A stretch of 64,000 nt of DNA, taken from positions 12,161-76,160 of the IMG/VR virus record IMGVR_UViG_3300037424_001021; one strand, written 5' to 3'. Within the stretch, counting starts at the first letter, position 1. Every line of letters starts with the position of its first letter. The notes beneath the pieces were generated by a model, which did not search any database, was not told the origin of the DNA, and was given only the letters and a program-made list of their open reading frames with translations. Source of the stretch: a virus (taxonomy: Duplodnaviria > Caudoviricetes). The translations under genes and the position numbers were made by a program. Positions 8,475 through 39,960 of the stretch are shown here, in pieces.

Positions 8475-8482
8475 CTCTTTAA

Positions 8483-8491
8483 TGTTATAAT
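8483..8491 (+). promoter_or_regulatory. Extended -10 sigma70-like promoter element
   Basis: TGtTATAAT just after the terminator and upstream of GAAAGGGG RBS and ATG 8515. Confidence 0.55.
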
Positions 8492-8514
8492 CAAGCATAT
8501 AGAAAGGGGCTATA

Positions 8515-9866: not shown

Positions 9867-9920
9867 TATATGAATTAGAGGAATTCCGCCATTTTTTTCA
9901 GAAAAAGGCGGGTTATTGTT

Positions 9921-16398: not shown

Positions 16399-16432
16399 AA
16401 GTAGGAAGGATGCTAGTTAGCATCATTATAAC

Positions 16433-19305: not shown

Positions 19306-19316
19306 TCCAATGCAAT

Positions 19317-20222: not shown

Positions 20223-23200
20223 TTGGCCAGATTTCCTTATGTTTATAGTTTAGCAAGCGGCAGAGTTTACTATGGTTCTGCTTTGCCTTCTAATAATCAA
20301 AATAATCAACCTCAATATTGGACAAATCAACCTCAAATTCCTGTAACTTCTAATTTTCAAGTATTAAAAAATACTGCAATTACTGGTGGAGTTTTAGGTA
20401 CAATTGGAGCAATCGGATTTCTTCCAACAAAAACAGGCAATGTTTGGGATAAATATTTGCATGGCATGCGTGCAATTGAAGAGTTTAGTCCTGGTGGAAT
20501 CCTTCGAACTTTTCAATTAAGTAATGTCTTTAGTCCATTATCTTCTACAGTTAAAAAGGCTAATTATCATATTACGCCAGAATTATTAGCGAATAATCCG
20601 ACTTATTTAGAATATCTTTCGCGATTAATTGGAGGTTCTGATACTAAATTTAAATTATATCAACAAGGAGTAACTTTTCGAGGTGGGAAATTACATTGGG
20701 GAACTGGGAATGAACTTGCATTACGTTATTCCAGTATGTTGCTTTCTGCTGGTCATGGAACTGCTCAAAGAATTGGAGCAGCATATGCAAGAAATTTAGG
20801 ATTACAGAGCAACGTTCCACTTGAACATTTTTTTGCTAATATTCAACCTCGCCCTGAATTAGCAGAATTGATCAATCCTTCAATTGAAAAAGAAGCGTTT
20901 CAAGTTATTGGAGGACAATCTCGTTTACAATCGTCATATCGTTACATAAGTGCAATTGGGACTGAACAAGTTGATAGATTTAATCGTCTTCTAAATGCTC
21001 AATCTGATATTCCAATTTTAAAAGAGGCTTTTGGAAAACTTCAAACTTCTTGGAAATCTGTTTTTGGCAAACCATTTAAATTAGGAGTAAAAGAAACTGG
21101 CGGTTTGCGTATGTTTGGCAAGCTTGGTTTTAAATATGGAGTTGGTTTAACTGCCTTAACTCTTGGATATCAGACTTTAGATTGGACAGCAAGACGCTCG
21201 GAATTATTAGATGATACAGTTTTGGATGAAGGTTTAACTGTAGCAGGAGCTACTGTAGGTATAAAAGCAAATCTTGCTATTTCTAAAATAGCAGAAAAAT
21301 TAGGTTTACACTCTTATCGAGAAAAACAAGAAGAAATTGCACCTGGATCTACTTCGTTAACTAAATTAGCTGCATTTCCTATAATGGGAGCATTAGCTCC
21401 TATTGGAGGGTTATATGCTTATAAAACTACTAAAATGGCTTCTCTTATTAGACAAGGATTAACTCCTGCTGCTGCCCGAGAAACTGCACAAGAAGCAATT
21501 AGTTCTTGGAAATCTGGACCTTTACTTGAACAAGTAGGCAATATTTTTGCGAAAAAAGGCGGATTATATTCCAACGGAGGAATATTAGATAATCTAATAA
21601 AGAAAATAGCATTTCCAGATAAAGCAGGTAATTTAATCTATAAAGGATTGGGCAAGTTAACCCCAGGTAAACTAGGTGCTGCAATGGGAGCGTCTATTGG
21701 ATTAGCAATGATTGCTCCATTTTTACCTGGAGCACTTATGCCATCTCAGCGTCCTGATGAATTAGAAGCGTTATATTCTGGTAGAAAAGAAATTGCAATT
21801 CGAAAAGGCCGAGGATGGCTTATGGGCAGAAGTAAATTTGAAGGGGAAAAACCTATTACATTTTTGCCTCATTGGTTTCCTCGGATGAGAATGAGAGCAA
21901 CAGAAAGAGGATTATGGGGACCTGAAGAAGATGAACGTAGCCCGATTTCTAAATGGTTAGCAAAAGAAACGAGTTACGAACTGGAGTTACGTCATTATTA
22001 TGATCGGCCATATGGTTTAACCGGAACTTTCGGAGAAGATTTACCATTGATAGGTCCATTAGTCGGAGCAACTATCGGAAGGCTCATTAAACCTCCGCGC
22101 CCAATGCATGAATCAGAATTTCAGGGAAAAGGCGGGGAATTTTTAGTCCCTCAACCCAGATATGGAGAAAGAATAAACACTGAAATAGGACAACAATTAC
22201 CAGGTAAACCAGTGTCTCCATATAGTCCTACTCAAGTAGCAGGTGAACAAATATATCGAATGTGTTTTACAAAAGATACTTCAATCAGAATGGCCGATAA
22301 AGCGTATAAAAAAATTAACGAAATTAAAATCAATGATGAAATTTGGCAATTAAAACAGCCTAAAAGAGTAAAAAATATATTTATACATAGCCAAACAGAA
22401 GATGAACAATTAAAAGAAATTCAAGTCTATGGAGATTGGAGAAAGTTAAAAGTTACAGATAGTCATATAGTTTTAGCCTTGCAACCGAAATTCTGTTCTG
22501 CAAAAACATATAATTGTATACCTAATGGAAGTAGAGAAAGTTCTAAATGCAAAAAATGTAAAAACAAACTGTATCAAAAATATCAATTAGAGTGGATACC
22601 TGTTAAAGAATTAAAAAAATGGGATTATCTAATTCAATATATTCCAAAAGCGAAAGATAGCAAAAAAGAGTTATACCTCCCAGATATATTGAATATGGAC
22701 AATTTTGAAATTATCGATAATCAAATATATCGACGAATACAAAAGTCGTTTGTTCGAAAATCAAATGATTATATCAATTTTAAAGGAACTGAAATACATC
22801 GTAAGGGTAATGAGTACTCAGCTGACTACATAGATAGAAATGCAAAAACACTGCCATTGTCAATTCCGCTAAATTGGGATTTTGGATGGCTATGTGGATA
22901 TTCTTTAGCCGAAGGTTCTCCAAGAGCTTACCAAGTTAGCTACGCAGCTCATATAGATGAATTAGATTCTCATTTTAAAAAATTATTCGATTTAATGAAT
23001 CTTTTTTTTAATGAAAAAGAAATACGTTGGATAGTAAAAAAAGATGGAGAACAAAAATTAACAAACGGAATTGAAGCGATTATAAATCATACCTCTCTAG
23101 CTGAACTATTGAGAAGTCTTTTGGGAATCCCTAGTCATAAAAAAATTAATTCTATTTTGTTAAATTCAAACAAAGAATTCTTATTAGGATTGCTTAATGG

Positions 23201-26200
23201 ATTTATCGATGGAGATTTTCATATCAGGGAAAAAGAACTCTCTTGCAATCAATCAAATCAAATTTTACAAGAGCAACTGCGAGATATCTTTTTTAGTTTA
23301 GGGATACAGGTTAATACAACTTATGTAGAAAAAACTAATGGTATTCCAGATAAATTATACTATGCTTATGGATTTAATTTATATCGCAATGAAATATTTA
23401 AATTAAGACAATTAGGCAAATCAGGATTTAAATTATCAAAAGATATTGCGACTGGAAAAACTAAATCTACAGAAAGCTTTTTAGAAGAATATCCTGATTA
23501 TTATATTTTATATAAAAAAATAAAATCAATTAAGAACTTGCCTTCTACCGACTTTCTTTATGATTTAGAAATAGAAGACAATCATCATTACTACGCCGAA
23601 GACTGCGTAGTACATAACTCCGAGATGGTGGGTTTGCCGGGCTTCATAGAGTCATCTATTAAAGAAAAATTAACTGGAACACAAGACTGGTTTGACCAGT
23701 TTGCTCAATTGGAAACTTCAAGAAGAATGGGGGGTTCTGAGAGAAATTACTGGGATAGAGAACTTGGAGATATTTTCGGAACCTCGGAGACTATTAGACG
23801 CTTTTTCCCGCATCGTCGAAGAGGTATAGATTTATACAATCCAATTACTAATACTCAACCTTGTCTATTGCCAGATACCGAAGTTTTAATGGCAGATGGG
23901 AAATGCAAGAGAGCCGAAGATATAAAAATTGGAGAAAAACTTATTTCTCATAAAGGAGAAGAAGTTTTTGTAGAAAATATAGGAAAATTCCCAACATCCA
24001 AAGTCGTTCATCTCTCTCTGTATGGAGATAATTTTCATAAATTAGATTTTTCTCCAAATCATCCTATTTTAACTGATGAATTAATTTTCAAAAATGCTGA
24101 AGATATCAGAAAAGGAGATTACGTAGCCTTTCCTATTCGCAATTATGAAAAAGAAATACCAACGTACAAAATAGATATTTCAAATTTTCTCAATATAAAC
24201 TGCTCAAAAACAGACAAATATTTATATTATGGAATTCAATCTTCCAATTATATGGAAAATGAAATTGCAGAAAAGTATAAATTTAAAATTAAAGAAATTC
24301 CATTAGAAATAAAACATAAATATCCAAAATTATACAAAATATGCAATTATAGATTAAATAGTAATCGGAAATCTTCGTATAAAAGAATTTTAAGAAATTG
24401 GGATATTGAAGATTTTTATTATCTTATTGGAGTTTATATTACAGAAGGTTCTGTTTTTTCGCTAAGAGATAAGTCTTTTAAACTTTCTGGTCATAAACAA
24501 GATAAATGGGAAGAAAGAATAAAAAATATTTTCAATAAATACGAGATTAAATATTCAATAGAAGACTCAATAACAGGAACAGGAAGAAATTTTCAGATTA
24601 CCAATCCTATTCTTTTTAATATTTTAAGAGATATCTCTCCAGGTCATGCAAAGGAAAAATATATTACTGAAAATATTCTTAATCATTCTAATCCTGAAAT
24701 TGCCATAAAATCACTAATTAAAGCACTGATAGATGGGGATGGTTGTTATTTTAAAACCAAAAGCAATAGAATTAGATGTCAACTAAAGACAACTTCTAAA
24801 AATTTAGCCTATCAATTTAGAAACCTTGTAATAGATGTATTTCATTTTGCTCCTTCAATTACTCATTCTGTTTTTAAAGAAAAAGAAAGTTTTCATATAT
24901 CGCTTTCAGGTTTAAATGCAAATATTTTAGCAAAAGAAATTGGATATCAAATTTTCGACTATACTCCTAAACAAAATAACAATAAACAATATTCAGATAA
25001 TTCATACATCTATATCAAAGTAAAAAAAGTCTTAACTGAAGAAAAAGATACCTATGTAATTGGTCACCAAGTTGCAGGAGACCATACTTTTTGTGTATCT
25101 TTAATAGCTACTCATAATACGTGGATGCCCGGAGCTGGAGATAAAAGTCCAGATTTTAGAACTGGTGATCCTATGGTCAAAATTCCATTTGGAGAAATGA
25201 GATTACCTGGACCTGGCATAGAAGCAAGATATCCAGAATTAGAAGGAGTTGCTCCAGAAGATTACAAACCCGCCTATCGCTATAAAATTCTATGTTTAGA
25301 TGCTAAAACTCTTGTTATCACAGATAGCGGAATGAAATCTATTCAAACTATTCTTGAAACAGATCAAGTTATCGGAGAAGATGGCCAATATCATTCAATA
25401 CTTTCAAAAATTCATAATACTAGAATAGATGATAAATATAAATTATATACATTTTATAATTTCGAACCTTTGATCTGTAGTGCGAAACATAAAATTTTAA
25501 CTTCAGATAAATCTGGAAATATAACTGAGAAAGAAGCGCAAAATATTACACAAAATGATTATTTAGTTTTTCCTAAAAGTTCTTTTGGGAATAAAAAAAA
25601 TCTATGTATAGGAGACTACTGCAACACAGATGACGTAAATATTCAATATATAAAAGGAGTGTATTCAGCCAAAGCAAAAGGTTCTCAAAATTTTATACCT
25701 TTTAACTTAGAAGTTAATTACAACTTAGGATTTATTTTTGGATTATATCTAGCAGAGGGAGGGATTTCTAGATCAACTGTAATAACTTTTACATTTAACA
25801 TCGAAGAAAAAAATACGATAGCTAAAAAAGTAGAAGAATTTTGTAATCAAATAGAACTTCCATATACTACTAGGGAAACTACCACTAATAGTTATCAAAT
25901 TATCATTAGCAATAGGCTTCTAGCAAGATTTTTAGGAGAAAATTTTGGATATACCCAATATACTCATCATATTAAATTAGATTATTTAAATTATTCAAAA
26001 GAATTTGTTCAAGGAATTTTCGATGGCCATTTTAATGGAGATGGATATATGGCTTGTACTCAAAGCACTATCAATGGTAGATCTACTTCGGTTTGTAAAG
26101 GCTTAATTGAAAATTTAAGATTAATGGGTCTAATGTTAAATATAAATGGAGCTATTAATTTAAGAAAAGGAAAGTATATTGGCCAACAAGGTTACACTTT

Positions 26201-27851
26201 TGATATCCAAAGACGAGATTTAAAGAAAATTAAGATGGATAAAATTCATTTGAATTATATTCCAAAATATAAAGAGTCTCAATCTAATAAATATAATTTT
26301 GAGAATGAAACTTTTCGTTTTGTTAGAGTTTCAAAAATAGAAATAGAAGAACAAGTTAATTGCGACTGGTATGACATTGCTATTGATGGAATAAACAATA
26401 TTCATAGATTTGTTACTTCTCAAGGACTTGTTCACAATTCTGATGTTGCGCCATATAGTGATGCTTTTAAAACTGCTAAATTAGAAGTAATGCGCGCCCG
26501 AAAAATGAAATCTTGGACAGAAAGAGATGAAGAATTATTTACTCAAGCAACTGATCAATTAAAAGAAAAGAAACAAGGACAACAATTTCAAGAATATCAA
26601 TATCTCAATGAGATGGGCGGGTTAAGTGATAGCCCAGGTAAACAGTATGCGTCTCAATTATTAACAGAAATAAATGAAACACAAAAGAAAGGTATATCTT
26701 TTAATCAGTCAACTTTAAAAAATACAATAGGAAGTTATTGGGAATTATTAAGTCATAATGCAGAAACTGCTTTAGATCAATTAACTCCAGTATCTCCAGG
26801 AGCAAAATTAGTTCATCAACGTTCAGCAATTGAATCCTATGAAAGAACTCAATTGTACGGTCAGTCTAATGCCTTTTGGCAACATCCTGTAAAAGATTTT
26901 CTTGCCCCATTTGCTCGTTCAGTCTCTCATGCATTTGGTTATGAAGGAGAAAGTCCAGGTATACGCGAAAAGAGAGATATAGAAAGTTACTTTGATGTTT
27001 TAAAATATATGAAAGCTTCACGACTTGCAAATATAGCAAGGCAAGCTAAAGACGAAGAAGCTGTAAAAGAATTTGAAACTCAAAAAGACCAAACTCTTTT
27101 TGGCATAAATCCATTTACACGTAGATATGGAGACTTATTACGAGCATTGCCAAGAGCAGAACGTGATTATCTTGGAGCATTTGAAAAAGCTGATACTTAT
27201 GACGAGCGTGCAAAAATTCTTAAAATGGTTCCTGAAAATGAAAGAGGATTGTATCTTGCTCGATGGAAGTTAACCGAAGCTGACGAAATTCGTAGAGCAC
27301 AAAAGGCGGGTATTTTATCACAAGACCAACTTAAACAAGCGGATAAAGAATTAGAACAATTTTATGGAGAAGCTAAAACAGAAGGGTTTCCATCTTCAAA
27401 AGAATTATTTGCAGAGTATTCTGCAACTCGTTCTTATAATGAAAATTACGGAGATTGGTATAGAAGAATTTATCTATTGCCGAAAATTCCTAATCTTCCA
27501 GGGTCAGACTGGGTAGGATTTACTCCCCAGGTTGATTTAGAAGATATCAAAATGAAAGTCGTCAAAGAACATGGAAAAAATATTCATGATTACAATTTAT
27601 GGGAATCCAGAGAAAAACAACTTGCCTATAAGTCGTATATCAATGAAGAAGTAATTGCTCCAATTATGAAACCTAACCAGTTATCAATAGAAGAAAGAAA
27701 AAGTCAAATCAATGACGTATTACTTGCCAATGAAATCAAAGGTAGTACATTTATTAGAAGAGACAAAACTAGTAATAATTCTATAGATATTCATATAGAA
27801 CAAAATAGAGATAAAGAAAAAGAAAAATTGATTTTAAAAGCATTGGATTAA
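20223..27851 (+). CDS. Giant tape-measure-slot protein precursor with three inteins (2542 aa; 1289 aa if spliced)
   Basis: Follows chaperones; several Gly/Ala-rich hydrophobic segments (e.g. LGAAMGASIGLAMIAPFLPGAL); three C...HN[S/T] intein blocks; TTG start with AGGT upstream. Confidence 0.75.
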   Translation: MARFPYVYSLASGRVYYGSALPSNNQNNQPQYWTNQPQIPVTSNFQVLKNTAITGGVLGTIGAIGFLPTKTGNVWDKYLHGMRAIEEFSPGGILRTFQLSNVFSPLSSTVKKANYHITPELLANNPTYLEYLSRLIGGSDTKFKLYQQGVTFRGGKLHWGTGNELALRYSSMLLSAGHGTAQRIGAAYARNLGLQSNVPLEHFFANIQPRPELAELINPSIEKEAFQVIGGQSRLQSSYRYISAIGTEQVDRFNRLLNAQSDIPILKEAFGKLQTSWKSVFGKPFKLGVKETGGLRMFGKLGFKYGVGLTALTLGYQTLDWTARRSELLDDTVLDEGLTVAGATVGIKANLAISKIAEKLGLHSYREKQEEIAPGSTSLTKLAAFPIMGALAPIGGLYAYKTTKMASLIRQGLTPAAARETAQEAISSWKSGPLLEQVGNIFAKKGGLYSNGGILDNLIKKIAFPDKAGNLIYKGLGKLTPGKLGAAMGASIGLAMIAPFLPGALMPSQRPDELEALYSGRKEIAIRKGRGWLMGRSKFEGEKPITFLPHWFPRMRMRATERGLWGPEEDERSPISKWLAKETSYELELRHYYDRPYGLTGTFGEDLPLIGPLVGATIGRLIKPPRPMHESEFQGKGGEFLVPQPRYGERINTEIGQQLPGKPVSPYSPTQVAGEQIYRMCFTKDTSIRMADKAYKKINEIKINDEIWQLKQPKRVKNIFIHSQTEDEQLKEIQVYGDWRKLKVTDSHIVLALQPKFCSAKTYNCIPNGSRESSKCKKCKNKLYQKYQLEWIPVKELKKWDYLIQYIPKAKDSKKELYLPDILNMDNFEIIDNQIYRRIQKSFVRKSNDYINFKGTEIHRKGNEYSADYIDRNAKTLPLSIPLNWDFGWLCGYSLAEGSPRAYQVSYAAHIDELDSHFKKLFDLMNLFFNEKEIRWIVKKDGEQKLTNGIEAIINHTSLAELLRSLLGIPSHKKINSILLNSNKEFLLGLLNGFIDGDFHIREKELSCNQSNQILQEQLRDIFFSLGIQVNTTYVEKTNGIPDKLYYAYGFNLYRNEIFKLRQLGKSGFKLSKDIATGKTKSTESFLEEYPDYYILYKKIKSIKNLPSTDFLYDLEIEDNHHYYAEDCVVHNSEMVGLPGFIESSIKEKLTGTQDWFDQFAQLETSRRMGGSERNYWDRELGDIFGTSETIRRFFPHRRRGIDLYNPITNTQPCLLPDTEVLMADGKCKRAEDIKIGEKLISHKGEEVFVENIGKFPTSKVVHLSLYGDNFHKLDFSPNHPILTDELIFKNAEDIRKGDYVAFPIRNYEKEIPTYKIDISNFLNINCSKTDKYLYYGIQSSNYMENEIAEKYKFKIKEIPLEIKHKYPKLYKICNYRLNSNRKSSYKRILRNWDIEDFYYLIGVYITEGSVFSLRDKSFKLSGHKQDKWEERIKNIFNKYEIKYSIEDSITGTGRNFQITNPILFNILRDISPGHAKEKYITENILNHSNPEIAIKSLIKALIDGDGCYFKTKSNRIRCQLKTTSKNLAYQFRNLVIDVFHFAPSITHSVFKEKESFHISLSGLNANILAKEIGYQIFDYTPKQNNNKQYSDNSYIYIKVKKVLTEEKDTYVIGHQVAGDHTFCVSLIATHNTWMPGAGDKSPDFRTGDPMVKIPFGEMRLPGPGIEARYPELEGVAPEDYKPAYRYKILCLDAKTLVITDSGMKSIQTILETDQVIGEDGQYHSILSKIHNTRIDDKYKLYTFYNFEPLICSAKHKILTSDKSGNITEKEAQNITQNDYLVFPKSSFGNKKNLCIGDYCNTDDVNIQYIKGVYSAKAKGSQNFIPFNLEVNYNLGFIFGLYLAEGGISRSTVITFTFNIEEKNTIAKKVEEFCNQIELPYTTRETTTNSYQIIISNRLLARFLGENFGYTQYTHHIKLDYLNYSKEFVQGIFDGHFNGDGYMACTQSTINGRSTSVCKGLIENLRLMGLMLNINGAINLRKGKYIGQQGYTFDIQRRDLKKIKMDKIHLNYIPKYKESQSNKYNFENETFRFVRVSKIEIEEQVNCDWYDIAIDGINNIHRFVTSQGLVHNSDVAPYSDAFKTAKLEVMRARKMKSWTERDEELFTQATDQLKEKKQGQQFQEYQYLNEMGGLSDSPGKQYASQLLTEINETQKKGISFNQSTLKNTIGSYWELLSHNAETALDQLTPVSPGAKLVHQRSAIESYERTQLYGQSNAFWQHPVKDFLAPFARSVSHAFGYEGESPGIREKRDIESYFDVLKYMKASRLANIARQAKDEEAVKEFETQKDQTLFGINPFTRRYGDLLRALPRAERDYLGAFEKADTYDERAKILKMVPENERGLYLARWKLTEADEIRRAQKAGILSQDQLKQADKELEQFYGEAKTEGFPSSKELFAEYSATRSYNENYGDWYRRIYLLPKIPNLPGSDWVGFTPQVDLEDIKMKVVKEHGKNIHDYNLWESREKQLAYKSYINEEVIAPIMKPNQLSIEERKSQINDVLLANEIKGSTFIRRDKTSNNSIDIHIEQNRDKEKEKLILKALD
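22263..23618 (+). mobile_element. Intein 1 (452 aa) with LAGLIDADG homing endonuclease
   Basis: Starts CFTKDTSIRMAD; block B VTDSH; LCGYSLAEGS and LLNGFIDGD; ends YDLEIEDNHHYYAEDCVVHN followed by Ser. Confidence 0.92.
23862..25118 (+). mobile_element. Intein 2 (419 aa) with LAGLIDADG homing endonuclease
   Basis: Starts CLLPDTEVLMADG; SPNHP; LIGVYITEGS and LIKALIDGDG; ends HTFCVSLIATHN followed by Thr. Confidence 0.92.
25293..26438 (+). mobile_element. Intein 3 (382 aa) with LAGLIDADG homing endonuclease
   Basis: Starts CLDAKTLVITDSG; SAKHK; IFGLYLAEGG and IFDGHFNGDG; ends WYDIAID..HRFVTSQGLVHN followed by Ser. Confidence 0.92.
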
Positions 27852-27854: not shown

Positions 27855-30800
27855 ATGCCGCCGCCAAAAAAAGAAACAAATAGTGGAGATTCATTTTTAA
27901 AAGCCGCAATTAGAGTAGGCACCGCTGGTGGATTATATGCTTCGTATAGAAAAGGTAGAGATTTAAAAACAGCAAAAAATTCATTTATCGAAACAAGTCA
28001 AGCGGTTGCTAAACCTTCAGGATTTGCTAACAAAACCGAATATCTTGCTTTTCTTGAACAGCACAAGGAATTTATGCAAACTCCAGAAGGAGCAGAATTA
28101 ACAAAACAAGCTTGGTTAAGAGCAGCAGAAAATGTCTCGCCTTCGTCTAAAAATCTTCTTTCTTTTACTTCAAATTTACAAAATGCGGCGGGTACTAATG
28201 TTTATTCTGCAATTGAAGCAACAATTCAACGTAATGAATCTAAGTATATAGGACGTACTGTTTTTCAATTTAAAAGAAATTTTAATGCATTTCGTTCTCA
28301 TTATTCGTTAACTAAAACACTTCCTCAATTTACTACAGCACCTGCAACAATGGCTGGAGTAGGAGCAGGGAAAGATGTAGCAGTTAGCGCACTTCCTTCT
28401 GGGATACAAGGTTATGTGTCTCGTATGCAACAAGAACTGGGAGGTTTAGTTAAAGCTAAATTTTATACGCGAAAAGGCTGGAAAGAAACTGGACATGGAC
28501 AATATCTTTTAACTTTCGATACTCCAAAGGGTAAATTTTCTGTAAATGTTCCACTGCAATCTCAAGGAACTGTCGTGGAAGGATTAACTCAATCTTCTAC
28601 GAGAATTGGACAATCAACTCGATTATTTGACAAAACAACAAAAGGACTTATTGGGACATATACGGCTCCAGAATTTATGCTTTATGAATTAGAAAAGACA
28701 TTAATTCCCGCAATTCAGTCAGGCAAATATCAATCTGGTTATGATATTCAAAAAGTAATCAATACTATATATGAAGAAAATATTGGTAAACTTGAAGCTG
28801 TACCTAATATTCCTGCAAATTTACGGCAAAAAGGTTGGAAATCTTATACAGGAATTAAAAGTAGAGCTGTTAGATTAAGATTATTAGATCAAGCAAATCA
28901 ACAATCAATTTTTAGAATTCCTGGTTCAGAAGAAAGAATGGCATTATTAAGAAGTAATAGAGATTTAACTCCTTTTACTTCTCCAGGTAATTTAGCAGAA
29001 GCAACCTATAGTACATATGATCCTCGTGCCTTATTGCCTACTCCAGAAGCAATTGATTTTAGTCGTTCGCCTCGTCAAATGAACAGAGAATGGAAGGCAA
29101 CCGAATATGCATCAAGAGCAATAAGAAATCTTGGTAGAAGTAAATTTGAAACAGTGCAATGGCAAAGAGATATGGGAGTTGGTTCGTCTCCTTTATTGAA
29201 AGCAATTTATATAGATCCAGAACGTCATTCTGATTTACTTCAAAAATTCGGTATGGCAGAAGGCGAACATTTGTTTGCAGAAAATCCAGAAGTTCGAAGA
29301 ATGCTTCAATCTGAAAGAATTGGTTTTTCTGGTAATTTAAAAAGTATCACTCCTAATCTAGAAAAAAGAATTCGAGAAGGACGATTTACTCCAGGCGAAA
29401 TTCTTGGAATGACAACAGAAGGAGAAGCCTATAGATATCAGAAAGGAATGAATCTTCTTGGATTACAACAAGTTTCAACTAAAGGTAAAGGAGCTTTTTA
29501 TCAATTAAGTTATAAAGAAGTTTATGATTTTTCAGAAGCAGAAAAAACTTTCGGAACTAAAGGAATGGGCAAGTTTGTTAATGAATTTAATGTTCAAAAA
29601 GAAATTGCACCATTGACTCAAAATGCACAGATAACTCAAGGTTTTCAAACTGTTATTAATATGGATATACTCAAAAAAGACAGACAGCTTCATAATCAAC
29701 AAATGCTTGGTGCGCTACATGAAGCAATAGTTATTAGATTTAATCAAGGAGCTAATCTTTCTGGTTGGGAAAAACGTTTCTATGAGAATCCAGTTGGTAT
29801 AGGAAATATGTTAAGTAAACAAGCTACGACTGGAAATATATATAGTCATGAGAATTTTGTGGCTAATTTAATGAGATTAGCAACTCAAAAACTAAAAGTT
29901 AATCCAGAAGAATTTGGCGTAGCATTTGGTTCTGTTCCATATACGATGGGATTAGAATGGGCACAGCAGCAAATGGAATCATTAGCTCTCTCTCAAGCAC
30001 ATAGAATGTCTTTGTTTTCTGGAATTTCTGGAGGATTAGCAAGAACAGTATTTGCAGGTCCTCATTCAAGGAATGCAGGAACACTGGGAGCATTAGAACC
30101 CCGCGTTTTTGAACAACTAACCGCAGGACAATTTGGACCTATGGGAGATCAAATTGCAGAAGATTTATTTAATAGACTTCGGGTTACTAATCCAGAACAA
30201 TTTGAGACTTTTGAAGCTTTGACTAAATCTTTACGTTCAATGACGGGAGTAATAAAACCAGGAAAAGGAGAAGAAATTTGGGATTTATCGAATATAAACA
30301 AGATTTATGAATCTCAAGCTTTTCAAGAACAAATAGAAAAAGGAAGTTTCTGGTTACGTACTGGAAAGTTTGGGATACCAGATATATACGTTCCTGGAGT
30401 TGCCGAAGCTTCAAGGTTCGAGAGATATAAGACAGCAGGGGGCGAAGCCTTCAGAGGAGATATATCAAGTTTATACCATGATTATGCGCGAAAGGCGGGT
30501 ACTGTATACCAAGATGTTGGACAAATAAGCAAAGAAGAACTTCAGCAGTCTTTTGAAGAATTGATTTCAGGAGTTCACAAACAACAAGCTCCATTAGGAA
30601 AAGGAGCTGGAGCTTTATTCGGAGGCAAGGTTCTTGGTTCGAGATACCTGACCGCAGTATCGTCAATTGCTGGATATACTCCTCCTAATCTCAATACTGT
30701 TGGAATTAGTCCAGAATATCTAAATCAAATGATGGAGGAAATGAAAGAAACTGGACTTTACGACACAGAAACCTTAGTAAGAAATCGGAAAATTTTAGAA

Positions 30801-32204
30801 AGAGGTGGAACTATTCCTGGCATGATCAGACGAGATCCAGCAATTGGTTCTTATTCTCAACAATTAATAAATTTCCAAATGATGAAAAATGCCGAAGGTC
30901 CAGTAATTGCAGTTCCATCTCGATTGACTCAAATCGCAATTCAGGGAGAAGAAGAGTTGAATCCAGTTAAACTTGGTCCGATGTTGGGTCTTTCTGGAGA
31001 TTATGATGGAGATACAGTTGCAGCTTTTCTTCTAAATCCAAAATTAAATAAAGATATCAATCAACATTTCACATCTCTTTCATCTAATTCGGAGTATCAG
31101 CAAGCTTATATCCAACACCAGATCAGAACACAATTAATGCAAGCAAAGGGTCTTGGAGTTAAAGGCGAAGTTGGACAAACTATATTAGATAAAATGATTG
31201 CAGATGCAGAGAAATTAGGAACTACTGAGTCTTGGGTGCCTAAATTATCAAATGAATTAACTGCAATGAAAGCAGCAGTTCATAGTAAGTTATCTAGACA
31301 GACTGCGGTAAACGCCAGAGCACTTTTAGAATTTGCAGAACAAGTGCCTGTATCAGGCAAAAAACTACCAACAGGTCAAGTTCTTAACAGAACTATGGAA
31401 AGTTTATTTCAAACGATGCATCAATCAGTGCAATCTCGTGATCCTGTTGCATTTACCAATGTTATCAATCGTATGTTGGAATCAAGTGGACCAATAACAA
31501 AAAGACTATTAACAGGAGATTTAAATATAACTTTAGAAGACCAAACTCCGATAACTTTAAAAGGGATGGATCTTGAAGATACAGTAAATCAAATGATGGG
31601 AGCTTATACTCAAGCTCAAGAAAGTGGAGAAGCTCGATTTTTTAATCAATTGCGTGGACAATCTACTATGAAAGTTTCAACTTTAAGACGATATCTATCA
31701 GCAGGTTCTGAATTCTTGCAAGAAAAAACAACAGGTATTGGTTCTATGTTTAAAATGGTTTCAGCAACAATAGCTGGAGCTAATGAGTTAATGGCTGTTG
31801 GTAAAAAAATATTAACAAGTAAAAAAGTTGGATTTGGTTTTGCAGGAGCCATTGGATTGGCAATGGCATTGTCTTCTCCTAAAGATTCTATAGGGCCAGC
31901 TGTTGGATTAAATACTCAACCAAATCTAAATCCTAATAAAGGAAGTTCAAGAGTATCTCCTGACCAGATAGCTCCTTCTCAGCCATTAGGAAGTCCTACG
32001 TCTCCAGACTTGTTTAGTTCTCCGAATGCTCGTATTGCTATGACTCCTGAATCTGGTAGAATATCAATTAGAGCAACCTCAGATAGGACTGTAAATAAAC
32101 TAATGCTAGTTTCTAATATGACTGGTTCTAATAGTTCAATAAATATAAGCGACCGTTCCGAACGTTTAAATAAACATGTTTTGATAAATAAATTGCTTGG
32201 TTAA
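27855..32204 (+). CDS. Putative virion-associated single-chain two-barrel (DPBB) RNA polymerase
   Basis: GDYDGD at 30996-31013 preceded by GMIRRDPAI and LFGGKVLGSRYLTAV (beta'-like barrel); upstream PGEILG and EKTFGTKG resemble beta-subunit motifs; hydrophobic terminal segments. Confidence 0.72.
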   Translation: MPPPKKETNSGDSFLKAAIRVGTAGGLYASYRKGRDLKTAKNSFIETSQAVAKPSGFANKTEYLAFLEQHKEFMQTPEGAELTKQAWLRAAENVSPSSKNLLSFTSNLQNAAGTNVYSAIEATIQRNESKYIGRTVFQFKRNFNAFRSHYSLTKTLPQFTTAPATMAGVGAGKDVAVSALPSGIQGYVSRMQQELGGLVKAKFYTRKGWKETGHGQYLLTFDTPKGKFSVNVPLQSQGTVVEGLTQSSTRIGQSTRLFDKTTKGLIGTYTAPEFMLYELEKTLIPAIQSGKYQSGYDIQKVINTIYEENIGKLEAVPNIPANLRQKGWKSYTGIKSRAVRLRLLDQANQQSIFRIPGSEERMALLRSNRDLTPFTSPGNLAEATYSTYDPRALLPTPEAIDFSRSPRQMNREWKATEYASRAIRNLGRSKFETVQWQRDMGVGSSPLLKAIYIDPERHSDLLQKFGMAEGEHLFAENPEVRRMLQSERIGFSGNLKSITPNLEKRIREGRFTPGEILGMTTEGEAYRYQKGMNLLGLQQVSTKGKGAFYQLSYKEVYDFSEAEKTFGTKGMGKFVNEFNVQKEIAPLTQNAQITQGFQTVINMDILKKDRQLHNQQMLGALHEAIVIRFNQGANLSGWEKRFYENPVGIGNMLSKQATTGNIYSHENFVANLMRLATQKLKVNPEEFGVAFGSVPYTMGLEWAQQQMESLALSQAHRMSLFSGISGGLARTVFAGPHSRNAGTLGALEPRVFEQLTAGQFGPMGDQIAEDLFNRLRVTNPEQFETFEALTKSLRSMTGVIKPGKGEEIWDLSNINKIYESQAFQEQIEKGSFWLRTGKFGIPDIYVPGVAEASRFERYKTAGGEAFRGDISSLYHDYARKAGTVYQDVGQISKEELQQSFEELISGVHKQQAPLGKGAGALFGGKVLGSRYLTAVSSIAGYTPPNLNTVGISPEYLNQMMEEMKETGLYDTETLVRNRKILERGGTIPGMIRRDPAIGSYSQQLINFQMMKNAEGPVIAVPSRLTQIAIQGEEELNPVKLGPMLGLSGDYDGDTVAAFLLNPKLNKDINQHFTSLSSNSEYQQAYIQHQIRTQLMQAKGLGVKGEVGQTILDKMIADAEKLGTTESWVPKLSNELTAMKAAVHSKLSRQTAVNARALLEFAEQVPVSGKKLPTGQVLNRTMESLFQTMHQSVQSRDPVAFTNVINRMLESSGPITKRLLTGDLNITLEDQTPITLKGMDLEDTVNQMMGAYTQAQESGEARFFNQLRGQSTMKVSTLRRYLSAGSEFLQEKTTGIGSMFKMVSATIAGANELMAVGKKILTSKKVGFGFAGAIGLAMALSSPKDSIGPAVGLNTQPNLNPNKGSSRVSPDQIAPSQPLGSPTSPDLFSSPNARIAMTPESGRISIRATSDRTVNKLMLVSNMTGSNSSINISDRSERLNKHVLINKLLG

Positions 32205-32206: not shown

Positions 32207-35200
32207 ATGTCTAATTTAAATACAGACACTTCTTTCTTTCAGTTGAACGATATCTGCTTATCTATTCCACCTGAAAGCATAAGTATTCAGCATAAATTGT
32301 ACAATAATACTTGGCAGACACTGCGTACTCGTTCTTCGACTAAAGTTAAATCTGGTTTTTCTCAGATTGAGATAATTGTAAAATGTAAATTTGCAGATTT
32401 AGTTTTATTTCCAACATCAGGTGGATTACCTACCAATAGTTTTTATGAATTAAGAAATTTAGTTTCTCAATTTAGAATTACTCCATTTTGTTACGTAGAA
32501 AATCAATATTTAAGGGATAACATTTTATCCGGCGATTTGTCGGAAAATATGGCGCTTGCTTTGCGACAATTAGAGATATTTACTTCTCCAGACCAAGTAA
32601 ACGTAGTAGATGTAATTTTTCATTTTGCATGGTTTAACTATGCGCCTTTTCTGAAAAATTTTACTTTTAAACGAGACATTTTTCTACCAGATGAAGTGAA
32701 TGATCCTAAAGATTCTCGTGCATATAGATTATTATATTTAGCAGAACAACAGCGGGTTATATACGATCCTCTGTTAAGTTTAAATGGAGATGTTAATTTT
32801 CAATTTTATGAATATAAAGTTATTTCTAAAAAACAATATCAAGCTTTAAAACATGATTACGAGTTATATGAAAAATTGCAAAATACGAATCCTGATCTTG
32901 TTATTGGTCGAGATCAATTATTAAATCTTGGATTTGCAGCAAATGAAACTAACGCCACTTTACAAAATTTATTTGGAAATCAATCTTCACAAAGTCAAGA
33001 TATTACTTTAAATGACATTATCCAGTCATTAAATTCTTCAATTCAGGATCCTACATCTTTTATTTCAACAATCCAAAAAGATTGGAAAGTTGTATATCTT
33101 GGAGGAGAACAAAAGTCAGTAAAACTGCAAACTACTTTAAAAACTGACCACGAGATTGAAGAAACAGAACTTAATAAAATTACCGAAGAAGAAATGGTAC
33201 TTCTTCAAAAAAATCACGAAATTGATTTAGCAAAAGCTGGAATTGTCGTTACAGGACTTCATATTTCATTTGAAAATATATTAGCTACTATTCCTATGTT
33301 AGGTTATAGTTATCCAACTTTTCAACATATTGGTTCTACAGATGCAGTAATTTCATTGTCATTTCAAACTGATTCAGAAGCAGGAAGTCGTACTTTATCT
33401 AATATTCTTAACATCTATAATCAACAATCTTTAACTAATAGATTTATTCCACAAGGTCATCGCAATATTCATATTACTAATGATTTACTTGGAATGTGTG
33501 GATTACGAAATTTTATCATTGAAAGCAAAAGCATTCAAACTGTTCCTGGTCAACCAGGTGTATCTGTTGGAACTTTAGTTTTCCTTGATGATTCATTAAA
33601 TGAGAATACAAGTGAACAAATTATACAAGGTCAAAGTTTTACTACAAGTTTCGATATAAGAAACAAAATTGCAAAAATTCTAGAAAAAAATCTGCAATTA
33701 GTCTCTAATGTCTTTAAATTTAATGACGAAGGAGAAGCTATTTTAAATTCAGAAGCAGCTATTAGAATAGCAACTGGACAAACTGTAGCCGTTGTTGCAG
33801 GAGTTGCTGGAGTACCAGGTTCTGTTACAAATATAGCAATAACTAAATCTTCGTATTACCGATATATTGGGATAAATGATAATAATCATCAAGTCTTTAA
33901 AAAACTTTGCGAAGAATATGGTTTAAATCTTTCTATTCTCTTAGAAGAATTAGTTGAATATTTGCAAGAAAAAGAATCTTTCTTATTGCAATTAAAAAGA
34001 TTTTTTAAACACACTGAATCTGGAAGTTCTTTTTTATATCATTTTTTTGGATTAACTAATGAAGAAATTATAGGTATCAGTAAACTTCAAGAAGACATGT
34101 ATCCAGTTTTTCAGAAAAATTCTCGAAGAGACGAGTTAAGCGATAGCAGAATAAGTTCTCTAAATGAATTGCAAAAATTCTCTCGCGAACAACTAGAGCA
34201 ATTAAATGATATAGAAACAACAGGGACTCAAACAAGTCAAACTCAAGATTTATTGCTTTCCTTTATGCAAGATAAATTTACAGAATGGCAACAATTTACT
34301 TCCGCTTTTTTGGATAAAATTTTGTATTCTGGTTTAATACATTTGCCTCAATTTAAAGAAGCTACAGATTTAATTGCAAATAATGCATTAAATAGTGGAA
34401 CTGATTGTTATCCAGATTTTCCCTTACAGAATTTAGTATCCTTATTGTCTTCTTCCAAGGATAATGATTTAAATTTAGCCTTTGAAGCATTAAACCAATT
34501 ATTTCAAACTACTGATTTGGGATTTAAGAATATCTCGTTATCTTCATTGATAAATCCTGATTTTTATTTTTTCAACAGAGTGACAGATACTATTGATGAA
34601 ATTGTTCCTTCAGATATCGTCAAAAGAGCTACAGATGGAATTATCAAAGCCAGAGAAATGATGGAGCCAGCTGAAAGTGATTGGATGAAAAAAGTTTATG
34701 AAACAAATCTTTTGACAGATATAAGAAGTAAACAAATTACTGCCGATATGGCCAAACCACTAGCAGACAAAAGTTTAGAAAAAGCATTTCAAACAAAGGC
34801 AGGACAGTCTTATAGAAATCATTTACAAAGAGCAACAATTTTTGCACCAAATCAATTAGTAGGAAGTATTACCTCTGCAATTAAAGAATCTTCATATGGT
34901 AAAGATATAATTGAATTACCTGCATTTAGTTTAAGCAACAATTCTCAAAATGTATTAACTAACGAGAGACAAGCTATTAATTTAACTGTTAATTCGAGTA
35001 TTCCTGAAATAAAACATAATTTTGATACAGAAGAGGTATTAAAACCAATTAATCAACCAAATTCTCAAATTGTTTTTAACGGGACTATCGAAACTCAATT
35101 AATTGACAGTCAAGGACATAGTTTGCAAAAAGATGCCGCTATTAATTTTAAAATTATGGCAGCACAAGCAAGACAAGAAGGTATCAATTTAGTTGTTAAT

Positions 35201-37648
35201 TCAGCCTATAGGGACAATGAGTATCAAGCAATATTGTATGAAAAATATCTAGTAGAATTAGCAAAATTCAATCAAGAAGAAATCACAGAGCGTCCTGCGC
35301 CAGCAGCAGCTCCTGGTAAAAGTAAACATAATCAAGGACTTGCAGTAGATATTCAAGTTGAAGATTCTTTTGAAAGCACAGTATACATGTGGCTCGACAA
35401 GAATGCTCCAGATTATGGTTTTATTAACACAGGGAAAAACTTTAAAAGACCTGAACCTTGGCATTGGGAATTTCAACCAGATATGGTAACAAATACAGAA
35501 CAGATAAGTTCTATTGGGGCAGCAATTGACCCTAACAATGAATCTCTTTTAACTAAAAGTTTAAATCAATTACAGAAAGATATATATACTAGTCAGGGTT
35601 ATACGATGATGCGAGCATACCCTACTTTTAAATTATATTTTATTGAGTCAGATTTAGGAGAACGTAAACGATATGCTTTTGATGACTTTTTTAGTTATTC
35701 AGCAGTCAAATCTATCGAGTTGATTAGAAGCAGAAAAATCGCGGCGGATTTATTGTTACTCGAATTGACAAACATATCAGGTATTTTATCAAATAGAAAA
35801 TTTCAATCTGCATATGACCCAACAAAACCAAGAGATGCGCAATCTTCTTCAAGAGAAAATCTCAATAATAGAACAGATGTAAATACTTTAAATGAGAATC
35901 CTATCGCATCTTTAATGTTACAACCTGGAGTCCAAATACAACTTCGTTTAGGCTATTCCAATTCACCTGAAGAATTAGAAAAAGTCTTTAATGGTATTAT
36001 TACCGATGTGGAATTTTCAGAAACAGATGATTTAGTTAGTATTGTGTGTCAAAGTTTTGCTATCGAATTAGTTCAATCGATTCATGGCGAAAGTAAAAGT
36101 TGGGGTGGATGGTTCTCTGGAAATGGAAAAACATTCAAAATTTTAGAAGAAGTTTTAGCTTCTCCAGAAGTTGTCCATTTTGGCAGATGGGAAGGAGGAG
36201 ATTTTGGAAGAAATACTCAACGCTCTTTGTTAACAAAAAGATGGAAATTTATTCCTGCTCCTCAAGATGACAATATTTTTGCTCCTCAAGGAGATACAGG
36301 TATTGGTTTTATTGATTCTATAATAGGTTCTCATAAGTATACAATGTATCAAACTACTTTATGGGATGTCATTCAAGAAATGACATTGCGTCATCCTTCG
36401 TATATTGCTTCTGTTGTTCCATATGACGGGAAAGATGGACCAAGATCTACAATGTTTTTTGGAGTACCAGATCAATTGTATTTTGCAAGAGATTCTTCTT
36501 ATACAGAAGATACTGTTGCTAGTAATTTAAATTCTCAAATAGATAATTCAGAAATTTCTGCAAGAGATGCGTCAAGAGATGCCAATGTTGAGCCAATTAA
36601 CGCCTTAGCTCGCAAAGAAGAAGATTCTTTGTATAGAAAACGTTATTTTGAATTACTAAAAAAACAATATGGACTCAATCGAGGATTCATTAAGCCTTTT
36701 CGAAATTATCATATTGCTACGTCTGGAATGCATATTGTATATAACAATATTAGCGCTTCTGGACACAATACGTTCAATACAGCCACCGTTCAATATGGAA
36801 AAAGTGCCGCTGATCCAAATGAAAAAACTGGTCAATTAGATTTTGATGGTTCCAGTACGTTTACGTTGAAAGCAGATGCGGCAATTCCTGACGAAGATAT
36901 CAGAGAACTATCTGTTCAATATCCAAATTGTATTGGTGAAGAGGTTGCAAAAAATTATTGTTTAAGTTTGCTTTTTAATTCATTAAAAGATTCTTATAAA
37001 GGAAATCTTGTTTTAATAGGCAATCCGAAAATTAAACCATTTGATATTGTCTACTGTTTCGACACCTATAATGATCTTGTAGGGCCCATTGAAGTTGAGC
37101 AGGTAATTCATAAATTTTCTCAAGAAACTGGATTTATAACAGAAGTAACTCCCGATATGGTAGTACATGTTAATCAGCATTCTACCCTTTCTACAAGTGA
37201 CGCAATGGGATATATCGCAGAATATGCACTAAAAAAAATCGGTGTTACTAATAATGTTTTAACTGGTTTAAAAATTGCTGGCAATGTTGCAACTCTGCCT
37301 TTACTTCCTCTCTCTCCATTAGCTGCTATGTTTTTTAATTCAGCTGAACATACTTTGTCCACTGGTACTAATAATTCTCCTTTGGCTTTAATTGGGACTT
37401 TTGTATTTAAAAAATTAATTACACGAACTCAGTTAGCTCATCCATTTAGATTTAGTCCCTTAGTTTTACAATCTCATCCAATGATTGGAGGACTACCTAA
37501 TAGAAAGACAGATGGTGGTTTTTTTCAACCTTTCGGTGAATGGAAGAAAGACTTTAAAGACTATAGTTCTCAATATCTTGAACATCTTATGGATAAATTT
37601 AATCCAAATAATTGGCTTGATAAATCCGAAGGAGATATTAAATTTTAA
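32207..37648 (+). CDS. Baseplate hub / tail-associated protein with internal M15B (VanY-like) peptidase
   Basis: SAYR, SKHNQGLAVD and EPWHWEF zinc-peptidase motifs at about 35120-35475; C-terminal hub-like LQPGVQIQLRLGYSN..VFNGIITDVE. Confidence 0.8.
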   Translation: MSNLNTDTSFFQLNDICLSIPPESISIQHKLYNNTWQTLRTRSSTKVKSGFSQIEIIVKCKFADLVLFPTSGGLPTNSFYELRNLVSQFRITPFCYVENQYLRDNILSGDLSENMALALRQLEIFTSPDQVNVVDVIFHFAWFNYAPFLKNFTFKRDIFLPDEVNDPKDSRAYRLLYLAEQQRVIYDPLLSLNGDVNFQFYEYKVISKKQYQALKHDYELYEKLQNTNPDLVIGRDQLLNLGFAANETNATLQNLFGNQSSQSQDITLNDIIQSLNSSIQDPTSFISTIQKDWKVVYLGGEQKSVKLQTTLKTDHEIEETELNKITEEEMVLLQKNHEIDLAKAGIVVTGLHISFENILATIPMLGYSYPTFQHIGSTDAVISLSFQTDSEAGSRTLSNILNIYNQQSLTNRFIPQGHRNIHITNDLLGMCGLRNFIIESKSIQTVPGQPGVSVGTLVFLDDSLNENTSEQIIQGQSFTTSFDIRNKIAKILEKNLQLVSNVFKFNDEGEAILNSEAAIRIATGQTVAVVAGVAGVPGSVTNIAITKSSYYRYIGINDNNHQVFKKLCEEYGLNLSILLEELVEYLQEKESFLLQLKRFFKHTESGSSFLYHFFGLTNEEIIGISKLQEDMYPVFQKNSRRDELSDSRISSLNELQKFSREQLEQLNDIETTGTQTSQTQDLLLSFMQDKFTEWQQFTSAFLDKILYSGLIHLPQFKEATDLIANNALNSGTDCYPDFPLQNLVSLLSSSKDNDLNLAFEALNQLFQTTDLGFKNISLSSLINPDFYFFNRVTDTIDEIVPSDIVKRATDGIIKAREMMEPAESDWMKKVYETNLLTDIRSKQITADMAKPLADKSLEKAFQTKAGQSYRNHLQRATIFAPNQLVGSITSAIKESSYGKDIIELPAFSLSNNSQNVLTNERQAINLTVNSSIPEIKHNFDTEEVLKPINQPNSQIVFNGTIETQLIDSQGHSLQKDAAINFKIMAAQARQEGINLVVNSAYRDNEYQAILYEKYLVELAKFNQEEITERPAPAAAPGKSKHNQGLAVDIQVEDSFESTVYMWLDKNAPDYGFINTGKNFKRPEPWHWEFQPDMVTNTEQISSIGAAIDPNNESLLTKSLNQLQKDIYTSQGYTMMRAYPTFKLYFIESDLGERKRYAFDDFFSYSAVKSIELIRSRKIAADLLLLELTNISGILSNRKFQSAYDPTKPRDAQSSSRENLNNRTDVNTLNENPIASLMLQPGVQIQLRLGYSNSPEELEKVFNGIITDVEFSETDDLVSIVCQSFAIELVQSIHGESKSWGGWFSGNGKTFKILEEVLASPEVVHFGRWEGGDFGRNTQRSLLTKRWKFIPAPQDDNIFAPQGDTGIGFIDSIIGSHKYTMYQTTLWDVIQEMTLRHPSYIASVVPYDGKDGPRSTMFFGVPDQLYFARDSSYTEDTVASNLNSQIDNSEISARDASRDANVEPINALARKEEDSLYRKRYFELLKKQYGLNRGFIKPFRNYHIATSGMHIVYNNISASGHNTFNTATVQYGKSAADPNEKTGQLDFDGSSTFTLKADAAIPDEDIRELSVQYPNCIGEEVAKNYCLSLLFNSLKDSYKGNLVLIGNPKIKPFDIVYCFDTYNDLVGPIEVEQVIHKFSQETGFITEVTPDMVVHVNQHSTLSTSDAMGYIAEYALKKIGVTNNVLTGLKIAGNVATLPLLPLSPLAAMFFNSAEHTLSTGTNNSPLALIGTFVFKKLITRTQLAHPFRFSPLVLQSHPMIGGLPNRKTDGGFFQPFGEWKKDFKDYSSQYLEHLMDKFNPNNWLDKSEGDIKF

Positions 37649-38913: not shown

Positions 38914-39960
38914 TTAGGAATTTCCATTTCCTTCTACAAGAGGTTCATGCCCGAACCCAACAATTTCAATATTCTTAGCAGCATTGACATCTCTTTGATG
39001 TTCAACTCTGCAATCAGAACATTTCCATTGTCTTATTTCAAGACCCTTCAATCCTTTCGGACCGCTAATGCAACCGCAATTAGAACAGGTCTGAGTAGTG
39101 AAATTTTCATTGACAACTTTGAACTCTGCTGATGCCCAACGGCTTTTATACTCAAGCATTGTTTTGAACATTCCCCAACCAGCATCAAGAACTGATTTAG
39201 CCATTCTTGTTTGTGCCAATTTGAGGCTATTTACATTGCCAACTGCTATTTTTCCATAACTATTAACTAACCGCCGCGACTCTTTATGTAATGCATCTTT
39301 TCTCCTATTTTTTATTTTAAGATGAATACGTTTTACTCTATCTTTTTTATTTGCTCTTTGAGCAATTGCTAATTTCTTTTCTTCATTACGATACCAATGT
39401 CCACCACTAAAAACTTCTCCATTTGAGAAGGTAGCAAGTGCTTTTAATCCTAAATCAATACCAATAGATCTAGTTTTATTTAATTTTGTTGGTTCAAATT
39501 TAACAGCAACATTTAAAAACCAATTACCTTTTGAATCTTGTGAAAAATTGCCAGCTCTTAATTCGTAGTTTTTAAGTCCATATGAATCCCAAACTTTATA
39601 TTTAGTTCCATTGAATTTAATTAATCCATTTTTAAAAGATACTTGTTTTATTTTAAAAGGAATCCATCCAAGTTTTTTGTTAGTTCTCCATTTTAATTTA
39701 GAACGTTTCACTTGCTGCCTTCGTATAAAATGATCTTCATTGACAGCTTGAATAGTTGCACTTCCAATACTTAGTTCTTTAGAAGTTCCAACCGTGTATT
39801 GATGCAAATCGTAATGAGTTAACCATTTTTTTCTTTGTTTCCAAGATTTAGCAGTTAATTCATTAATATAATTCCATACAAAATTCACATCTTTAGACAT
39901 CTTAACAAGAGATTTAGTGTTCTTACTTTTCAATCTTATGTGAAGTGTTTTAGTTTCCAT
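38914..39960 (-). CDS. tnpB: TnpB RNA-guided endonuclease (IS200/IS605/IS607-type), solo, rearranged RuvC-II
   Basis: IGIDLG (D169), CSNCG/CSDC zinc ribbon, RDVNAAKNI (D324); canonical Glu replaced by G241 (IAVGNV), alternative E285 (VNENFTT); no tnpA adjacent. Confidence 0.93.
   Translation of the reverse strand: METKTLHIRLKSKNTKSLVKMSKDVNFVWNYINELTAKSWKQRKKWLTHYDLHQYTVGTSKELSIGSATIQAVNEDHFIRRQQVKRSKLKWRTNKKLGWIPFKIKQVSFKNGLIKFNGTKYKVWDSYGLKNYELRAGNFSQDSKGNWFLNVAVKFEPTKLNKTRSIGIDLGLKALATFSNGEVFSGGHWYRNEEKKLAIAQRANKKDRVKRIHLKIKNRRKDALHKESRRLVNSYGKIAVGNVNSLKLAQTRMAKSVLDAGWGMFKTMLEYKSRWASAEFKVVNENFTTQTCSNCGCISGPKGLKGLEIRQWKCSDCRVEHQRDVNAAKNIEIVGFGHEPLVEGNGNS

Follow-up and report, generated by a model that had tools for sequence, protein, structure and literature searches.

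To our knowledge, only a few phage systems bring an RNA polymerase (RNAP) of their own into the cell along with their DNA: N4, the jumbo phages of the phiKZ/AR9 type, the crAss-like phages, and P23-45. Among these, P23-45 alone, again as far as we know, has one joined to its tape measure. Here, we discuss a gene that may be compared with that case. It lies on the plus strand, at 27855..32204, of a 64,000-nucleotide stretch of viral DNA (positions 12,161 to 76,160 of the IMG/VR record IMGVR_UViG_3300037424_001021; "the window" below). It is an open reading frame (ORF; P0001 in the ORF list with translations) of 1449 amino acids (aa). According to a high-confidence prediction, its product is the core of the cellular RNAP rendered as one chain, with the catalytic residues intact. 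The reading that we hold to be probable is that this is a very diverged single-chain two-barrel DNA-dependent RNAP, carried in the tail and injected to start phage transcription.

What defines a two-barrel RNAP is an Asp triad carried by one barrel and a pair of basic residues carried by its partner (PMC7824862). In the Thermus phage P23-45, an active enzyme of this class forms residues 327-1124 of gp96, a tape measure of 5002 aa; gp96 is found in virions, and is bound to the pre-early genes 5 min after infection (PMC10770324). The set of gp96 type comprises P23-45, P74-26, G20c, and TSP4 (PDB 8H2M/8H2N; Chaban et al., 2024; PMC10770324). A search of the literature for tape measures joined to RNAPs returned the P23-45 work only. 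The crAss-like phi14:2 gp66 is cited, in PMC10770324, as virion-carried and injected. A survey of jumbo phages reports two-barrel RNAPs only in group 1 and in two phages of group 3; Acinetobacter phage ME3, which is important below, is placed in group 2.2 (PMC7824862).

The case for a polymerase begins with the predicted fold. AlphaFold2, given an alignment of 59 sequences and no templates, modeled residues 400-1290 with a mean predicted local distance difference test score (pLDDT) of 91.2 and a predicted template modeling score (pTM) of 0.89. When Foldseek compares this model with the PDB, the best 50 matches are all RNAP beta' or beta'-like chains (E from 4e-5, probability 1.0), from the bacterial and plastid enzymes and from the non-virion enzymes of AR9 and phiKZ. 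VIA-align, run over 48,161 representative chains, aligns residues 400-744 with beta-type chains and residues 794-1290 with beta'-type chains. Isolated double-psi beta-barrel (DPBB) domains align on residues 928-1073. The full model aligns with the single-chain enzymes QDE-1, RDR2, P74-26 gp62, and P23-45 gp96, and the alignments with beta'-type chains and QDE-1 reach model residue 891.

These results support what a preliminary description of this DNA, made from its letters, had proposed: a single chain in which a beta-like barrel is followed by a beta'-like barrel that holds the Asp triad. That description held the beta side to be weaker than the beta' side. Structurally, this is not so; beta-type chains align on 400-744. 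For residues 400-1290, the prediction is a compact, globular alpha/beta protein with two barrels, unlike a classical tape measure, which is mostly extended and helical and sets the tail length by its own. Of the two barrels, DPBB-A carries the metal-binding DxDxD triad by which the two-barrel RNAP superfamily is recognized. As far as a model can tell, the fold is almost certainly that of a two-barrel RNAP.

The second line of evidence is conservation, by which the motifs can be told from chance. All of the motif strings quoted in the preliminary description were located in the 1449-aa ORF, at the residues listed in Table 1. DxDxD occurs once in the protein, against 0.03 occurrences expected from its Asp content, and D1049, D1051, and D1053 are invariant in alignments of 12, 28, and 130 homologues. 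The largest of these alignments holds 130 representatives, 19-57% identical to the query. Its invariant columns are P847, D1049, D1051, D1053, and K1169. At least 90% conserved in it are K564, K569, K608, E748-P749-R750, G928/S929, R993, P995, and S1001. In the 59-sequence alignment R993 is invariant; E1162 and K1169 are invariant, and the residue after K1169 is His in at least 90% of the 59 sequences. Thus, where DxDGD and two lysines had been put forward as the residues that homologues should keep, the Asp triad and the two lysines (K564/K569) are kept, and the Gly of DxDGD is variable.

In the model, K564 and K569 lie in a strand-turn-strand (model residues 163-176), and are candidates for the two basic residues of DPBB-B. 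A 36-residue helix, 1110-1145, precedes the loop with the invariant K1169; the helix is a candidate bridge helix, and the loop, EQxPxSGKH in the family, a candidate trigger loop. From its position in the barrel, GMIRRDPAIG would be the parallel of the beta' motif NRxPxLH. The beta-side motifs fall, in the same order, where the model can be aligned with beta subunits; their residue-level equivalence to GxNxEDxI, GDILVG, GDKxxxRHGxKG, and IVLNP is putative. We hold the protein likely to be an active enzyme.

The family is large. A profile search finds 299 clusters (50% identity) at E <=1e-3, with 227 at E <=1e-30, and nearly all of these proteins have 1400-1600 aa. Homologues of the same length are present in metagenomes; tblastn of the protein against 50,697 GenBank phage records found no match. 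By its fold and active-site signature, the candidate is in the two-barrel RNAP superfamily, outside the families of that superfamily that are defined by sequence.

Which described enzyme is the closest precedent? YonO and the crAss-like enzymes had been named first. Indeed phi14:2 gp66 and YonO of SPbeta are, like the candidate, single-chain two-barrel phage RNAPs. YonO, from the Bacillus prophage SPbeta, is not known to be a virion protein. The gp66 protein is capsid/muzzle cargo in a podovirus-type particle, and its gene lies outside the tape-measure slot. Among the fold-search matches listed, phi14:2 gp66, YonO, and PolD are absent, which shows nothing either way. The closest precedent is instead P23-45 gp96 (PMC10770324); by analogy, it is to this protein that the presumed function of the candidate is closest.

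The analogy with gp96 is not, of course, an identity. Here, the polymerase is a separate gene of 1449 aa, not part of one chain with ruler and peptidase. The peptidase is in the next gene (VanY, with M23 in relatives). The protein in the tape-measure position and the candidate have only a short C-terminal module in common, the phage has a contractile tail, and the structural match to gp96 is weaker than that to QDE-1 or gp62. QDE-1 is the top match among single-chain enzymes, and PMC9508822 describes both RNA- and DNA-templated activity for it. QDE-1 and RDR2, and likewise P74-26 gp62 and P23-45 gp64 (the non-virion RNAP), are 9-13% identical over the aligned residues; these enzymes are cellular or non-virion, and have neither the hydrophobic end segments nor the tail-type C-terminal module. 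In the non-virion RNAPs of AR9 and phiKZ, the polymerase is divided among four or five separate subunits, with beta and beta' recognizable by sequence, whereas here both barrels are on one chain; Pfam RNA_pol_Rpb1_2 has no match in the related genomes.

The gene is the middle one of three very large, closely packed genes, which we call X, the polymerase candidate, and Y. Its ATG begins 3 nt past the stop of X, and its own stop is 2 nt ahead of the ATG of Y, the hub gene. Minus-strand ORFs within 27855-32204 have 63-71 aa and are without support. The order is fixed in relatives. All 16 related loci examined (IMG/VR contigs of 36-189 kb, each with a homologue) have X (1131-2123 aa), the polymerase gene (1416-1548 aa), Y (1878-2035 aa), three small genes, and a baseplate J-like gene of ~407 aa. 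The three-gene block is also present in ME3, as gp035-gp036-gp037. Sheath and tube genes lie upstream of the block. X directly follows ORFs in the chaperone position and the polymerase gene directly precedes the hub, with the slot between occupied by two proteins.

That slot has an annotated occupant elsewhere. After the tail chaperonin genes, the layout of Bacillus phage 0305phi8-36 (gp145-gp146-gp147) is like that of ME3. The 2537-aa gp146 is annotated as a 'hypothetical tape measure protein', and the GenBank record marks gp145 and gp146 as virion proteins by mass spectrometry. The last ~80 residues of the polymerase ORF are homologous to the C-terminus of gp146. The family C-terminal profile finds gp146 with 29 bits and E 8e-11 (hmmsearch, a two-sequence search) and with a probability of 88% and E 3e-6 (hhalign). 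An independent six-frame search of EF583821 recovers the C-terminal module at 59976-60185 (E 2.3e-6), and the full-family profile agrees. In both proteins, a hydrophobic Gly/Ala-rich segment stands ahead of this module. The resemblance ends there: gp146 occupies the same slot, from a gp145-like protein to the hub, but is not similar to the polymerase core, and hhalign of the core profile against gp146 and gp145 gives a probability below 1%.

Since both position and C-terminal end are common to gp146 and our ORF, the ORF is in the tape-measure slot itself, not merely beside it. The earlier placement, between chaperones and tape-measure slot on one side and the hub on the other, is to be corrected in this point; the ORF is the positional counterpart of gp146. 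The C-terminus of a tape measure is generally held at the tail tip, as with lambda gpH and T4 gp29.

Hydrophobic ends had also been reported, and both are present. The N-terminal segment, SFLKAAIRVGTAGGLYASY, is conserved in kind (consensus SFLxxAxxxPxxxGxGxG), with a putative role. The C-terminal segment, KVGFGFAGAIGLAMALSS, is conserved as KPLALGFAAALGxAAxLSxP. It is Gly/Ala-rich, with a Kyte-Doolittle 19-residue mean below 1.5, and so is a hydrophobic segment without being a textbook membrane helix.

ME3 offers a cultured point of comparison. Its gp036 (1603 aa) contains REPAQGTMSSQ...GGDHDQD and KFFSVGSK in the correct order. Against the core profile, gp036 gives an hhalign E of 0.011, in the beta-like hairpin region only, and 8 bits in hmmsearch; a six-frame search of ME3 gave no candidate for the polymerase family. 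A fold search of BFVD has as its second-best viral match an ME3 fragment of 802 aa, A0A172Q021_2 (E 1e-9), which we take, by its length only (half of 1603 aa), to be the second half of gp036. Synteny, motifs, and this BFVD match make gp036 a probable distant member of the family.

A second region of ME3 drew attention (NC_041884.1, 222116-226849, minus strand; loci L040-L041). It has a 798-aa ORF that contains GLKAVTKGKPYLGK and ends in ...GLHVRNPS, then a zinc-finger ORF of 254 aa, possibly for a homing endonuclease, and then an ORF containing GAEHSDVDGDHSP. It appears to be a second two-barrel RNAP-like gene, split in two. The 798-aa protein is also a BFVD match of the polymerase model (E 7.6e-6). 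Neither the complete relative (G001) nor the contig of the window has a homologue of this second gene that tblastn finds.

How might a polymerase in this slot be used? It is probably carried in the virion and injected, if the analogy with gp96 is a guide. Carriage is suggested because X is homologous to gp035, which is annotated as a homologue of the virion protein gp145, and because the C-terminal module is homologous to that of the virion protein gp146. Further, the polymerase gene is in a late structural operon; early transcription by its product is therefore possible only if the particle carries the enzyme. On the reading that we favor, the polymerase would be synthesized late and, together with X, join the tail by way of its C-terminal module, either inside the tube or at the hub. 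Contraction of the sheath would then expel it through the hub into the host, with the hub peptidase opening the wall. The hydrophobic segments may hold it at the membrane. In the host, it would transcribe whichever genes enter first and have no need of the cell's polymerase, as has been shown for P23-45.

A more elaborate form of this idea can be offered tentatively, as a possibility that we hold to be less likely than not. The polymerase might itself fill the tail lumen, lying beside X in an unfolded or extended state, with the small C-terminal module that it has in common with true tape measures keeping it at the hub. Fired on contraction, it would be anchored in the membrane, refold, transcribe, and perhaps pull in the DNA. 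It may even be the sole polymerase of the phage. Apart from this elaborate form, which need not hold for it, no other polymerase was seen in relatives: PF00623 finds nothing in the records of five related viruses (the complete one has 188.6 kb), each of which has one copy of the polymerase family, and a D-x-D-[GA]-D scan of the complete relative found only the polymerase-family gene. With a single family copy and no beta' match, the phage may do without a further polymerase such as the non-virion enzyme that P23-45 needs.

Among alternatives, the one that fares best takes the slot at face value. Here, the protein is a tape measure or ejection protein whose core is either reused (for RNA-dependent synthesis as in QDE-1, as a DNA-pulling motor, or for some other nucleotidyl transfer) or is dead, a part of a plug or channel. 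The slot itself and the gp146 C-terminal module speak for this, as does the family length, which is held to ~1400-1600 aa as a ruler would be; the choice of QDE-1 as top single-chain match, with templates of both kinds (PMC9508822), would suit the reused core. However, the triad is invariant, and the basic pair and RxPxxGxxS are nearly so, among proteins only 19-30% identical. This is what selection on catalysis leaves behind, and it argues against a dead relic. Further, both barrels are matched in structure, and so are the helices after them; a dead relic would have lost these features. We therefore regard this alternative as unlikely.

The second alternative accepts the enzyme and denies its delivery. 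A genuine two-barrel polymerase might remain unpackaged and act in the cell, in late transcription or in the priming of replication, with its tail location irrelevant to delivery. The core is, after all, without similarity to gp146 of 0305phi8-36, and the complete relative has no second recognizable RNAP, so that this one could serve all phage-specific transcription. Against this stands the fact that an enzyme needed early and made from a late operon must travel in the particle. The gene lies between X and the hub in all 16 loci and in ME3, the C-terminal module is common with a virion protein of the same slot, hydrophobic segments are conserved at both ends, and P23-45 provides a precedent. 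Fixed synteny, end segments, and a C-terminus of gp146 type together argue against a purely intracellular enzyme, and make this alternative, too, improbable.

The last alternative, that the motifs are chance look-alikes and that the protein is a structural tail component of the ordinary kind, with no polymerase fold, could appeal to the missing sequence-profile link to RNAPs and to the general knowledge that DxDxD-type loops occur also in calcium-binding structural proteins, but the fold evidence excludes it and leaves it with very little probability.

Several observations weigh against a tail-delivered, active RNAP. First, sequence methods (Pfam, PHROGs, and a profile search of the PDB) link the protein to no known RNAP family. 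Pfam and PHROGs have no family for it, the sole Pfam line being DUF2561 at E 0.077, and a profile of 12 homologues run against PDB sequences found chance matches only, urease and BRE1 (E >0.7). Second, the fourth position of the triad loop may be G, A, K, E, or D, and the Gly of DxDGD is often replaced; because this position varies, the family motif is DxDxD, and not strictly DxDGD. Third, gp146 has no DxDxD. It has the C-terminal module only, and the link of the polymerase candidate to the virion is therefore indirect. Fourth, k-mer counts upstream of genes in the complete relative recovered only the Shine-Dalgarno sequence, with no conserved promoter-like motif. Fifth, the contig of the window, of 76,160 bp and with no terminal repeat, is a fragment without the early region. 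At only 54 bp, the 'terminal repeat' of the complete relative points to a circular assembly, and its genome ends are therefore undefined. What the sequences and the model show are the motifs, their invariance, the predicted fold, the synteny, and the C-terminal homology; that the protein is catalytic, sits in the virion, and is ejected, and which template it copies, we infer.

What would follow if the reading that we favor were correct? Already, the gene represents a large unannotated family (299 clusters) in which a core of cellular polymerase type sits in a tail slot of contractile-tailed phages. Should these proteins be active and injected, then host-independent early transcription would be common across a lineage of large environmental myophages, and the known diversity of two-barrel polymerases would grow. 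They would also provide a compact single-chain polymerase with which to study the passage of a folded enzyme through a tail tube. If the tail-lumen version were true, tail-delivered two-barrel RNAPs would be widespread in large myophages (~300 clusters), beyond a few Thermus siphophages. The probable distant relative in ME3, a cultured phage, would make the idea testable at the bench.

Table 1. Features of the polymerase candidate and of the structural region around it. Residues are those of the 1449-aa protein; positions are those of the window.
Feature	Residues	Positions	Strand	Remark
Polymerase candidate		27855..32204	+	1449 aa; single-chain two-barrel, in tape-measure slot
N-terminal hydrophobic segment	13-31	27891..27947	+	SFLKAAIRVGTAGGLYASY; Gly/Ala-rich
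Beta-like module	400-744	29052..30086	+	with DPBB-B
GMAEGEHLF	466-474			
PGEILG	513-518			
EKTFGTKG	563-570	29541..29564	+	hairpin with K564 and K569
VINMDIL	600-606			
Beta'-like module	794-1290	30234..31724	+	DPBB-A and the long helices after it (candidate bridge helix, trigger loop)
LFGGKVLGSRYLTAV	921-935			
DPBB-A, barrel proper	928-1073	30636..31073	+	
VGISPEYL	949-956			
GMIRRDPAIG	989-998	30819..30848	+	RxPxxGxxS motif (R993, P995, G998, then S1001)
GDYDGD	1048-1053	30996..31013	+	metal-binding Asp triad D1049/D1051/D1053
EQVPVSGKK loop		31338..31364	+	invariant K1169; candidate trigger-loop element
C-terminal hydrophobic segment	1324-1341	31824..31877	+	KVGFGFAGAIGLAMALSS; Gly/Ala-rich
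C-terminal module	~1399-1443	32049..32183	+	common with gp146 (ISIRAT...INISDRSERLN)
Portal		1414-3798		
Major capsid protein		7174-8415		
Tail fibre		9921-11435		
Tail sheath gene		13803..15701	+	phrog_16991, E 2e-77; shows contractile tail
Tube-like proteins		15730-17569		
Small chaperone-position ORFs		18892-19305 and 19278-20210	+	28-nt overlap, different frames; directly upstream of X
X, upstream partner		20223..27851	+	2542 aa; three inteins, extein ~1290 aa
Y, downstream partner		32207..37648	+	1813 aa; baseplate hub with cell-wall peptidase
Baseplate wedge gene		40048-41268		further virion proteins also in window

The window as a whole is the structural region of a contractile-tailed phage (Table 1). 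For the protein X, hhalign gives homology to ME3 gp035 with a probability of 100% and E 3e-85; the ME3 record labels gp035 a homologue of 0305phi8-36 gp145. According to Pfam, the three inteins of X comprise Hint, LAGLIDADG, and intein-splicing domains. Across the relatives found, the extein of X is conserved at 40-63% identity, far above the polymerase, and relatives free of inteins have 1131-1350 aa. One such relative was modeled in its place; the model is mostly helical (pLDDT 83.5), and a comparison with the PDB gave no informative fold match. Other relatives of X (including those at L002, L006, L007, L008, and L014) have inteins at many other sites.

The C-termini of X and the polymerase candidate (27702-27851 and 32049-32183 in the window) have a similar motif of ~23 residues, [VI]N[VI]x[IV]xxDR, followed by a short helix-like stretch. 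The similarity is weak (hhalign E 0.013 over 23 columns). The motif may be a signal for incorporation into the tail.

In Y, the VanY domain covers residues 971-1091, and relatives have Peptidase_M23 in its place. Residues 1109-1696 of Y are similar to the baseplate hubs of 0305phi8-36 (gp147) and ME3 and to related proteins from further large myophages. The overlap of the two chaperone-position ORFs recalls the frameshifted pair of tail assembly chaperones; a family search with these ORFs gave no match.

Elsewhere in the window, a transposase gene (38914-39960, minus strand; phrog_506, E 1e-69) separates the small baseplate genes from the wedge gene, and is the sole convincing minus-strand gene of the structural block. 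On the 3' side of that block, 55680-63478 (plus strand) holds genes with PHROG matches to glycosyltransferase, methyltransferase, and nucleotide-sugar epimerase. Upstream of the window, at 7714-10842 of the contig (L018), a 1042-aa ORF has matches both to terminase large subunits and to families annotated as primase or helicase, which suggests a terminase split by an intein or other insertion.

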